Below are positions 10,101-11,231 of a DNA stretch of 12,269 bases, piece after piece. How positions within the stretch are numbered: the first letter of the stretch is position 1; each line of letters starts with the position of its first letter. The position numbers and the translations under genes are program-made. Source of the DNA: a virus; IMG/VR virus record IMGVR_UViG_3300009149_005470; one strand, written 5' to 3'. Under the pieces are notes generated by a model. That model worked only from the letters and a program-made list of their open reading frames with translations. It was not told the DNA's origin and searched no databases.

Positions 10101-11231
10101 TTGAAGTACTTTAAATGAATTTATGAAATCGTTTTTTAAATTCTTTTCAAAATCAACCTGTCTTTTTTGAAAAATATGTTCTGGCGATTTATTATCAACT
10201 GTTTTAGGAATATCATATAATTGTACAATAACATCTTCTGTAGTGCTTACTGTTTTTTGTGGTTCTAGTATTTGATCACCATATACTTTATCAACAGTTT
10301 TTAAAGCTTTGTCAATATTTTTAGGATGTATTTTTGAAACCATAGCAATTGATTTATCAACATTACCATTAGTACTATGTAATATTGAAGCTATTACTAG
10401 TTTATCAATTTCATCTTTTGTTATAGTTTTACTAACAGTTTTCTCAAAATAATTATCTGATTTACTAAGAAAATCTTTTACAGCTCCCTTAATTGGTTCT
10501 TTATTATCAGGTATTATTTTTGAATCTATATTTTTCATAACATATGTTGTTGCATCATCAACATCAGATTCAATTTCTTCTTCAGTATCAGTAATTTTAA
10601 TTGATTTTAAGATTTGAAAGATTCTTGGAAATTGGAATTGTCTATCTTTTATTAATAATCTATGTTGTGTATTAGATTCACCAACAACAGATAAAATCAT
10701 ATGATCAAATGTTAATTGTTCTCCTTCCTTAAACATTTTTAACAATGGAAATATTTTTCTGTTCATCAGTGTGTTTAATTCTTCAGTTGCTTTAACAGAA
10801 TATATTAATATTTTTTGATATTTTGGTAAATAATTAGTAAATGATCGTACTATTATATCTTTTAAAAGAAAACCAGCTCTCTGTCTATAACCAGTTACTT
10901 TATAAGTTTTATCAATCATTTTTAAATAATTAGAAATATCAAAAAAGAAATTTTTTCCGGGTGGTATTTTTTGTTGTGGATTGTAAGCATATAATCCATA
11001 AGTTCTAAATAATTTTCTTGTATCTGAATCTAATCTGGTTCTTGGTATAATTGTAGTAGGAATAACTACTATTCTATTATCTACTGGTCGTATTCCCAAT
11101 TTTGGATAATCATCAATTAATGAAGAGTTTTCAGAAAAATATAAAATCATAAATGGTTCACTATTTTTCTGTGGAAATCTTATACCATTAACTTTTTGAT
11201 TATATTGTCTTAATGATTTAAATTGGATCAT
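7131..11231 (-). CDS. rpoB: DNA-directed RNA polymerase beta subunit, highly divergent virus-type homologue with an N-terminal extension
   Basis: Bacterial beta signature blocks appear in the correct order, compared with E. coli RpoB. (1) [31 protein letters not shown] vs [31 protein letters not shown]. (2) [27 protein letters not shown] vs [27 protein letters not shown]. (3) [12 protein letters not shown] vs GRHGNKGVISKI. (4) [26 protein letters not shown] vs [25 protein letters not shown]. (5) [45 protein letters not shown] vs [45 protein letters not shown]. The GEMD codons are at 7332-7343. TAG stop at 7131-7133. Confidence 0.9.
   Translation of the reverse strand: [1366 protein letters not shown]

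Follow-up and report, generated by a model that had tools for sequence, protein, structure and literature searches.

The multisubunit RNA polymerases (RNAPs) of jumbo phages contain neither alpha nor omega (PMC7598289) and run without sigma, which bears on how they are assembled, how they find promoters, and how they are packaged in the virion and injected. The lists of virion RNAP subunits hold fragments of beta and beta' only, no virion RNAP had been purified as of the 2020 review, and those non-virion cores that were characterised assemble without a platform (PMC7598289). The AR9 virion RNAP has an HD domain attached to its C-terminal beta piece (PMC7598289); this domain, together with a unique region on the piece that carries the double-psi beta-barrel (DPBB), is covered by the review and by a comparative genomics paper, with nothing in either on an N-terminal extension. 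Here we describe the RNAP beta gene in a 12,269-nt stretch of viral DNA (IMG/VR record IMGVR_UViG_3300009149_005470, hereafter the window), whose product begins with about 320 residues that, by their sequence and predicted structure, form a previously undescribed module that would behave like an extra polymerase subunit.

The closest described counterparts are the N-terminal beta pieces of AR9 (g189), PBS1 (gp80, the counterpart of g189, annotated as a virion RNAP subunit, beta N-terminus) and phiR1-37 (g099). Like the window protein, these carry an extension of several hundred residues ahead of the beta1 lobe, begin with a hydrophobic strand and then an (S/N)xN(S/N) loop, and come without alpha or sigma homologues; the PBS1 and phiR1-37 proteins are also the best structural matches of the module. 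They differ in that their beta is split into N- and C-terminal pieces, often with introns or homing endonucleases, whereas the window beta is a single 1366-aa chain. The sequence similarity between the extensions is below significance, and virion association is documented for the jumbo-phage proteins, whereas the module-beta family is known from metagenomes alone.

Organisation of the beta gene

The gene and its parts are listed below with positions in the window. Predicted local distance difference test (pLDDT) values are from AlphaFold2, pI is the isoelectric point, and A9 denotes a run of nine A's found in relatives.

7131..11231, minus strand: module and unsplit RNAP beta homologue, 1366 aa plus stop, ATG start, no internal stop
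10602..11231, minus strand: module subdomain 1 (aa 1-210), three-layer alpha/beta, basic (pI 10.0), pLDDT about 90-97
10584..10601, minus strand: acidic loop DTEEEI between the subdomains (aa 211-216), pLDDT falling to about 58-61
10272..10583, minus strand: module subdomain 2 (aa 217-320), six-helix bundle in the AlphaFold2 model, mildly acidic (pI 5.1), less conserved
10317..10334, minus strand: KIHPKN (aa 300-305), the position equivalent to the A9 site of relatives, without a slippery run
10182..10271, minus strand: connector (aa 321-350), poorly conserved, disordered in the module-only model, pLDDT 72-77 in the 700-aa model
7131..10181, minus strand: beta body (aa 351-1366), with N-terminal helix (aa 351-378), beta1/beta2 lobes, fork, DPBB and C-terminal clamp region
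9885..9932, minus strand: GTFxxxGxxxxxxxQ motif (aa 434-449), the first block alignable to cellular beta, corresponding to residues ~131-165 in E. coli-type numbering

The protein is a member of the Rpb2 superfamily, with Pfam Rpb2 domains 3 (PF04565, 7e-9, aa 702-768), 6 (PF00562, 1.5e-41, aa 854-1290; the DPBB, with its GDKxxxRxGxKG motif at aa 1086-1097) and 7 (PF04560, 1.5e-7, aa 1292-1364) present in order, and no Pfam domain match N-terminal of aa 700. Beta chains in the PDB match it with E-values down to 5e-64 for the single sequence and 8e-132 for the family profile. The strong similarity to these solved bacterial chains runs from aa ~690 onward, and the GTF motif is the sole N-terminal anchor. 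A single open reading frame (ORF) of 1366 aa spans every beta region (1318-1742 aa in relatives), so that beta is not split into N- and C-terminal polypeptides.

An earlier note on this DNA, made from the letters alone, had taken the GTF motif as the first block that can be aligned to bacterial beta, and the alignments agree: window aa 421-453 align with residues 110-141 of a Clostridium-type beta (single sequence), and family-profile positions 428-462 and 397-506 align with Francisella beta 131-165 and B. subtilis beta 84-206, respectively. The motif stands at aa 434-448, where the note had put it, and similarity to cellular beta begins there, with aa 427-461 matching beta residues 131-165. 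In the Rpb2 superfamily this motif is expected ~110-150 residues from the N-terminus. Since it is first alignable at aa 434-449 in the window protein, ~300-320 N-terminal residues are extra and have no counterpart in cellular beta. In our own reading, made without a scored alignment, a conserved F-x-K-R-x-[IV]-D-F (aa 353-361) is the equivalent of K-K-R-I-R-K-D-F near the E. coli beta N-terminus.

Predicted fold of the module

The extra residues were modelled with AlphaFold2, once as aa 1-345 with an alignment of 30 relatives and once as aa 1-700 with 50 relatives. Mean pLDDT was 86.4 for the shorter model, with the tail (aa 326-345) below 50, and 88.9 for the longer one, in which aa 321-350 lie at 72-77 and a long helix (aa 351-378) opens the beta part and runs into the strands of the beta1 lobe. 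The models show aa 1-320 as an autonomous accessory module of two predicted subdomains, joined by a connector of ~30 residues to an otherwise complete, unsplit beta. The earlier note had proposed an independent domain fused to beta and had placed its end near aa 340; the separate high-confidence fold argues for this independence, and the boundary was close, with the predicted module ending at aa 320 and beta beginning at aa 351.

Across 116 family members, E34, N35, N94, D98, Y144 and D176 are near-invariant and sit at strand ends of the module, and R116, R158, K159, K168, K195 and R203 are conserved basic residues. Sequence patterns were derived from the closer of two alignments (A2), A1 being too diverse for this purpose.

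Searches of Pfam (E<=10) and PHROGs with the module alone and with 11 free-standing modules returned noise only, and Foldseek gave no match in the PDB at E<=1e-3. RNAP beta, alpha/Rpb3/Rpb11, AR9 gp226 and phiKZ gp68 chains are all absent from the structural match lists of the module. It has neither an alpha N-terminal domain (NTD) fold nor RNA_pol_A/L Pfam domains, and neither a sigma domain 2/4 fold nor a likeness to AR9 gp226 or phiKZ gp68; matches of the helical bundle to extracytoplasmic function sigma factors and TFIIB are at noise level. With no beta or alpha among its structural matches, and sigma at noise level only, the module is therefore neither a diverged beta1 lobe nor alpha- or sigma-like by fold. 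A PD-(D/E)xK nuclease was also considered and was dropped, as conservation of the candidate D does not extend to the window.

Similarity to virion-type beta subunits

Among the predicted viral structures in BFVD, the top Foldseek match of the module is phiR1-37 g099 (1393 aa, annotated as 'phage structural protein'; E 3e-6, probability 1.0, template modelling (TM) score about 0.4), with PBS1 gp80 (921 aa; E 2.9e-5, probability 1.0, TM about 0.4) and a metagenomic myovirus RNAP subunit (E 1.7e-3) also found. Profile alignment with hhalign placed module aa 22-131 on g099 aa 26-151, collinear at the N-terminus (P 1.2e-3), and the module hidden Markov model gave no significant match to single sequences of isolate phages. 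When the beta lobes of the window were searched by tblastn, the best matches in isolated phages were the long N-terminal beta pieces of jumbo phages, including g099, several of them annotated as virion-associated. Ahead of beta1, the extension spans about 400 aa in PBS1 and about 420 aa in phiR1-37; those of LPJP1 and JD-Fnp4 are longer, at roughly 440-500 aa.

From the isolate side, a homologous-protein search with the g099 N-terminus gave no match, tblastn with the N-termini of g099 and PBS1 gp80 found their own close kin only, and the PDB holds no solved relative of gp80. Since these N-termini match close kin only, there is no isolate-side profile, and the link to the module is structural. 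The models make a remote homology probable between the module and the N-terminal extension on virion-type beta subunits. The domain, which the earlier note had treated as unique, probably corresponds to the extensions of the AR9/PBS1 and phiR1-37 proteins.

Relatives and gene order

Homologues were sought with aa 1-478 as the query, and a family profile was searched against 1.84 billion representatives, with clusters taken at 50% identity. The query matched 31 metagenomic homologues and the profile 154 clusters, so the extension is conserved coding sequence and not a chance reading frame. A scan of IMG/VR with the single module sequence gave no match. Among the proteins examined, beta preceded by a complete module is present in 59, of which at least 23, with lengths of 1318-1742 aa, are full length. 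Fusion is therefore the norm in this family and not an assembly artefact. A further 13-14 relatives stop right at the module-beta junction, and about a dozen proteins of ~250 aa match the module profile only to about positions 210-260, that is, mainly over the alpha/beta domain.

The loci of relatives were compared over 12-17 kb of each genome. Their gene order is beta' (about 1010 aa, unsplit) followed directly by module-beta, and the module joined to an unsplit beta is the hallmark of this metagenome-only family of low-GC large phages. A phage multisubunit RNAP beta that carries an undescribed accessory module is of more interest than a plain lineage-specific insertion would be.

Recoding at the module-beta junction

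The earlier note had suggested looking for relatives that encode the domain separately, and two such arrangements were found, one by recoding and one by duplication. In six lineages the module-beta junction contains exactly nine A's, at these positions of the respective loci:

L001, 8922-8948: A9 junction site
L010, 5916-5942: A9 junction site
L011, 5940-5975: A9 junction site
L015, 5916-5942: A9 junction site
L026, about 5400-5424: A9 junction site
L028, about 1385-1418: A9 junction site

The junctions read NCA AAA AAA AAG, GCA AAA AAA AAC or CCT AAA AAA AAA G, giving the zero-frame heptamers A_AAA_AAG, A_AAA_AAC or A_AAA_AAA. In all six lineages the zero frame meets a stop 4-8 codons past A9, and the -1 frame after A9 is conserved beta sequence without an ATG, GTG or TTG start. 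A slippery heptamer or a homopolymer of at least nine, a -1 continuation and the lack of a start thus occur together in each of them. On the 268-kb viral contig L001, for example, the module ORF ends at 8948, and the -1 frame continues from TCA AAA AAA AAG (8922-8933) with sequence homologous to window aa ~305-370, the first start codon coming not before 9110. The junction sequence of L011 is identical in four independent samples (L011-L014). In a neighbour-joining tree the A9 lineages are spread over three clades, with L026 and L028 in two separate ones, and in-frame relatives (L005-L007) are interspersed among the A9 lineages of the main clade.

We conclude that A9 reads as a conserved recoding site, where the zero frame would give a free module of ~310 aa and the -1 frame, or a transcript with one additional A, would give the fusion. 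RNAalifold found no conserved stimulatory structure downstream of the slip site (consensus -0.28 kcal/mol, no covariation), and plain transcriptional slippage on A9 is therefore at least as likely as a stimulated ribosomal frameshift. In L006 the A9 run does not break the frame, and after a -1 slip only one codon would precede a TGA; this relative may also yield both products, with the default reversed. An alternative genetic code behind the split ORFs was dropped as an explanation, the break being a frame change at A9 and not an in-frame stop.

The window lies in a sister clade that is entirely in frame. Its junction (aa 299-305) is TCA AAA ATA CAT CCT AAA AAT, which has no slippery run and is read through in frame, so the window gene appears to be a simple in-frame variant that would make the fused form only.

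The arrangement in the relatives resembles dnaX tau/gamma, insertion sequence (IS) elements that use A_AAA_AAG or A9 slippage, and Gag/Gag-Pol, where two products share an N-terminal module; as in dnaX and the IS elements, an A9 run with a zero-frame X_XXY_YYZ heptamer separates a short product from a long fusion. It differs from these systems in that the relatives have no conserved downstream stimulatory structure, the window gene has no slippery site, and the two products of the relatives are predictions from sequence. Literature searches turned up no account of recoding in a phage RNAP gene or of the N-terminal extension; a recoding site of this kind inside an RNAP beta gene appears to be undescribed, and would be a clear, hitherto unknown example of one phage gene yielding two products.

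Stand-alone paralogues

In three other lineages (L021, L022 and L024/L025), a paralogue of 249-252 aa lies between the beta' gene and a beta gene that keeps its own module:

L021, 6001-6759: stand-alone paralogue of the alpha/beta domain
L022, 6001-6750: stand-alone paralogue of the alpha/beta domain
L024, 6001-6750: stand-alone paralogue of the alpha/beta domain

In L021 the spacer between the end of the paralogue and the beta start codon is 16 nt long and contains a purine-rich GGGG stretch, and the free and fused copies share 31% identity over 190 residues. Several of the stand-alone paralogues end in LKTIDKF.. or AKYQKQK.., which resembles the LKTVDKVY helix just past the junction in the fused proteins.

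Recoding and duplication are two genetic routes to the same outcome, a free copy plus a beta-linked copy, and therefore point to a subunit-like unit; we regard this convergence as the strongest evidence that the module would act as a subunit. Occurring in fused, recoded and duplicated forms, it is marked by comparative genomics as a separable subunit.

Possible functions of the module

We infer that the module is an extra RNAP subunit fused to beta and used in free and beta-linked copies. As an overall explanation we favour an autonomous accessory module, free and beta-linked, that serves as an adaptor of a virion-type RNAP, with a probability of roughly 0.35. The specific role of a protein- or DNA-binding adaptor, after the logic of Gag and Gag-Pol, is put forward tentatively: the free basic module would associate with the inside of the capsid or with the packaged genome, while through the beta-linked copy the polymerase would be taken into the capsid and delivered with the DNA. 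The basic character of aa 1-210 (pI 10.0) counts in favour of this role. A wider formulation, also possible but doubtful, is that of a new accessory subunit needed both free and joined to beta, through A9 recoding or duplication, and either replacing the alpha2 platform or loading the RNAP into the capsid as an adaptor. Should the recoding turn out to be transcriptional slippage, the frame in which the beta gene is read would be under the control of the polymerase that this gene helps to encode. Of the three roles suggested in the earlier note, the alpha-like platform lacks a matching fold, and a tether to a compartment would be plausible.

Several points weigh against the adaptor explanation. 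The module-beta family comes from metagenomes, with no cultured member, and its association with virions is a prediction. The likeness to the phiR1-37 and AR9/PBS1 extensions consists of Foldseek TM scores of about 0.4 and sub-significant profile scores. The near-invariant polar cluster of E34, N35, N94, D98, Y144 and D176, which lies at the C-terminal edge of the sheet, resembles a ligand-binding or catalytic site more than the surface of an adaptor. The free paralogue is encoded inside the beta'-beta operon, a position that fits a stoichiometric polymerase subunit more readily than a head protein made in abundance. In the clade of the window, the DNA examined shows no way of making a free copy. 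A homopolymer error at A9 would also count against it, but the finding of A9 in six lineages and several independent samples makes such an error very unlikely.

The strongest competing explanation is a built-in promoter-recognition or DNA-binding module. Attached on the beta1 (protrusion) side, it would touch promoter DNA upstream and stand in for sigma, or for the gp68/gp226-type fifth subunit found in the non-virion jumbo-phage RNAPs. The pI of 10.0, the conserved arginines and lysines (R116 to R203, as listed above) and the flexible connector would fit such a role, as would the fact that the virion RNAP lists consist of beta and beta' fragments only (PMC7598289), while the N-terminal beta pieces of phiR1-37 and AR9/PBS1 bear comparable extensions. 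However, the sigma and TFIIB matches are all at noise level, no helix-turn-helix or sigma Pfam match appears even at E<=10, and conservation is strongest in the polar pocket, not on the basic surface. A free copy would moreover compete for promoters unless both copies bind DNA jointly. We consider this explanation unlikely, if still a serious contender.

A substitute for the alpha2 platform, in which the beta-linked copy and a free copy bound to beta' associate and so join the large subunits, is improbable. It would account for the two copies supplied by relatives through recoding or duplication, for the encoding of the free paralogue between beta' and beta, and for the lack of alpha and omega in jumbo-phage RNAPs (PMC7598289), and the bacterial alpha NTD dimer offers a parallel, since the module, too, may be present twice in each enzyme and its gene accompanies those of the large subunits. 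The earlier note had mentioned an alpha-like role, but the predicted fold is not that of alpha, Rpb3 or Rpb11 and there is no sequence similarity to alpha; the 30-residue flexible tether is unlike a rigid platform, and the clade of the window appears to have the fused copy only. The characterised non-virion jumbo-phage cores, too, assemble without a platform (PMC7598289).

An enzyme or nucleotide-binding domain that descends from the P-loop kinase fold and is fused to beta, acting on RNA 5' ends, nucleotides or DNA, comparable with the HD-domain fusion of AR9, is a long shot. The top Foldseek match in the PDB is PPK2 (E 5e-3), the near-invariant E34-N35, D98 and D176 lie at strand ends, where Rossmann-like folds place their active sites, and an enzyme fusion on a virion RNAP has a precedent (PMC7598289). 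Unlike the P-loop kinases and their kin (zeta toxin/PezT, PNK, PPK2, signal recognition particle GTPases), to which its identity is 5-12% with no Pfam match, the module has no Walker A motif (GxxxxGK[ST]) anywhere in aa 1-320 and no Walker B-like hhhhD in the usual topology. In place of Walker A, the strand at aa 27-33 passes through a loop S-E-N-S-S into the helix at aa 38-44, the beta1-alpha1 loop proper being the four-residue 'SENS'. The rest of the probability goes to roles other than these.

Finally, the two refutations named in the earlier note, that these residues are merely a diverged beta1/protrusion region with large insertions or that an assembly or sequencing frameshift has joined an unrelated upstream ORF to beta, are scarcely credible and were rejected: weak similarity to cellular beta before aa ~690 might suggest general divergence, but the module has an unrelated, independent fold without RNAP beta among its structural matches, the N-terminal helix and lobes of beta are modelled separately from aa 351, the 59 fused relatives come from many assemblies and share the start MIQFK..., and the gene directly upstream in relatives is beta', not a donor ORF.

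Whichever function applies, a compact, unsplit beta'/beta pair with a well-folded extra module offers a tractable system for the N-terminal extensions of virion-type beta subunits.

Neighbouring genes

Upstream of the beta gene, the window contains two further features:

12139..12267, minus strand: 3' end of the beta' gene, its product ending in FVQGLAFENVGAAIKTGLISEHDLPPSILEQIVTGTLISEKK before the stop, compared with beta' of L001
11231..12139, minus strand: 302-aa ORF between beta' and beta, with an HNH-like C-terminus (HLDHK...N)

The C-terminus of beta' at the right edge of the window gives the order beta' then beta, the reverse of bacterial rpoB-rpoC. The 302-aa ORF overlaps both neighbours through TAATG, its start lying on the beta' stop and its stop on the beta start. 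Its product has Cys-rich N-terminal repeats and an HNH-like DYHLDHKLSI...N, with weak PHROG matches only (phrog_5104, 1.4e-8). It is probably an inserted homing endonuclease, because relatives do not have it. In L024 both beta' (909-5742) and beta (6763-12255) are likewise broken up by insertion of other ORFs (DUF7487 and a 319-aa ORF), as also happens in AR9 and PBS1, and the RNAP genes of the module-beta family seem to be frequent targets of mobile elements.

Directly 3' of beta lie an acidic 196-aa ORF (6530-7120, minus strand) and an 89-aa ORF (6264-6533, minus strand), neither of which had a match in Pfam or PHROGs. In most of the relatives examined, beta is likewise followed by ORFs of these sizes (about 190-200 aa and 77-89 aa), for example at 12122-12718 and 12720-12986 in L001, and the motif FLEFLEYDYIGFIA of the 196-aa ORF is shared with its L001 counterpart (FIEFLEYEYIGIIA). 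Their products are candidates for further RNAP-associated subunits.

Beyond these, a 332-aa ORF without family matches (4305-5303, minus strand) has a GTG start, a Cys-rich middle and a Pro/Ser-rich low-complexity C-terminus. In an 838-aa protein (1723-4239, minus strand), a major-vault-protein shoulder domain (PF11978, E 5.9e-20) is accompanied by a weak match to the vault repeat; such a protein is, to our knowledge, unusual in a phage.

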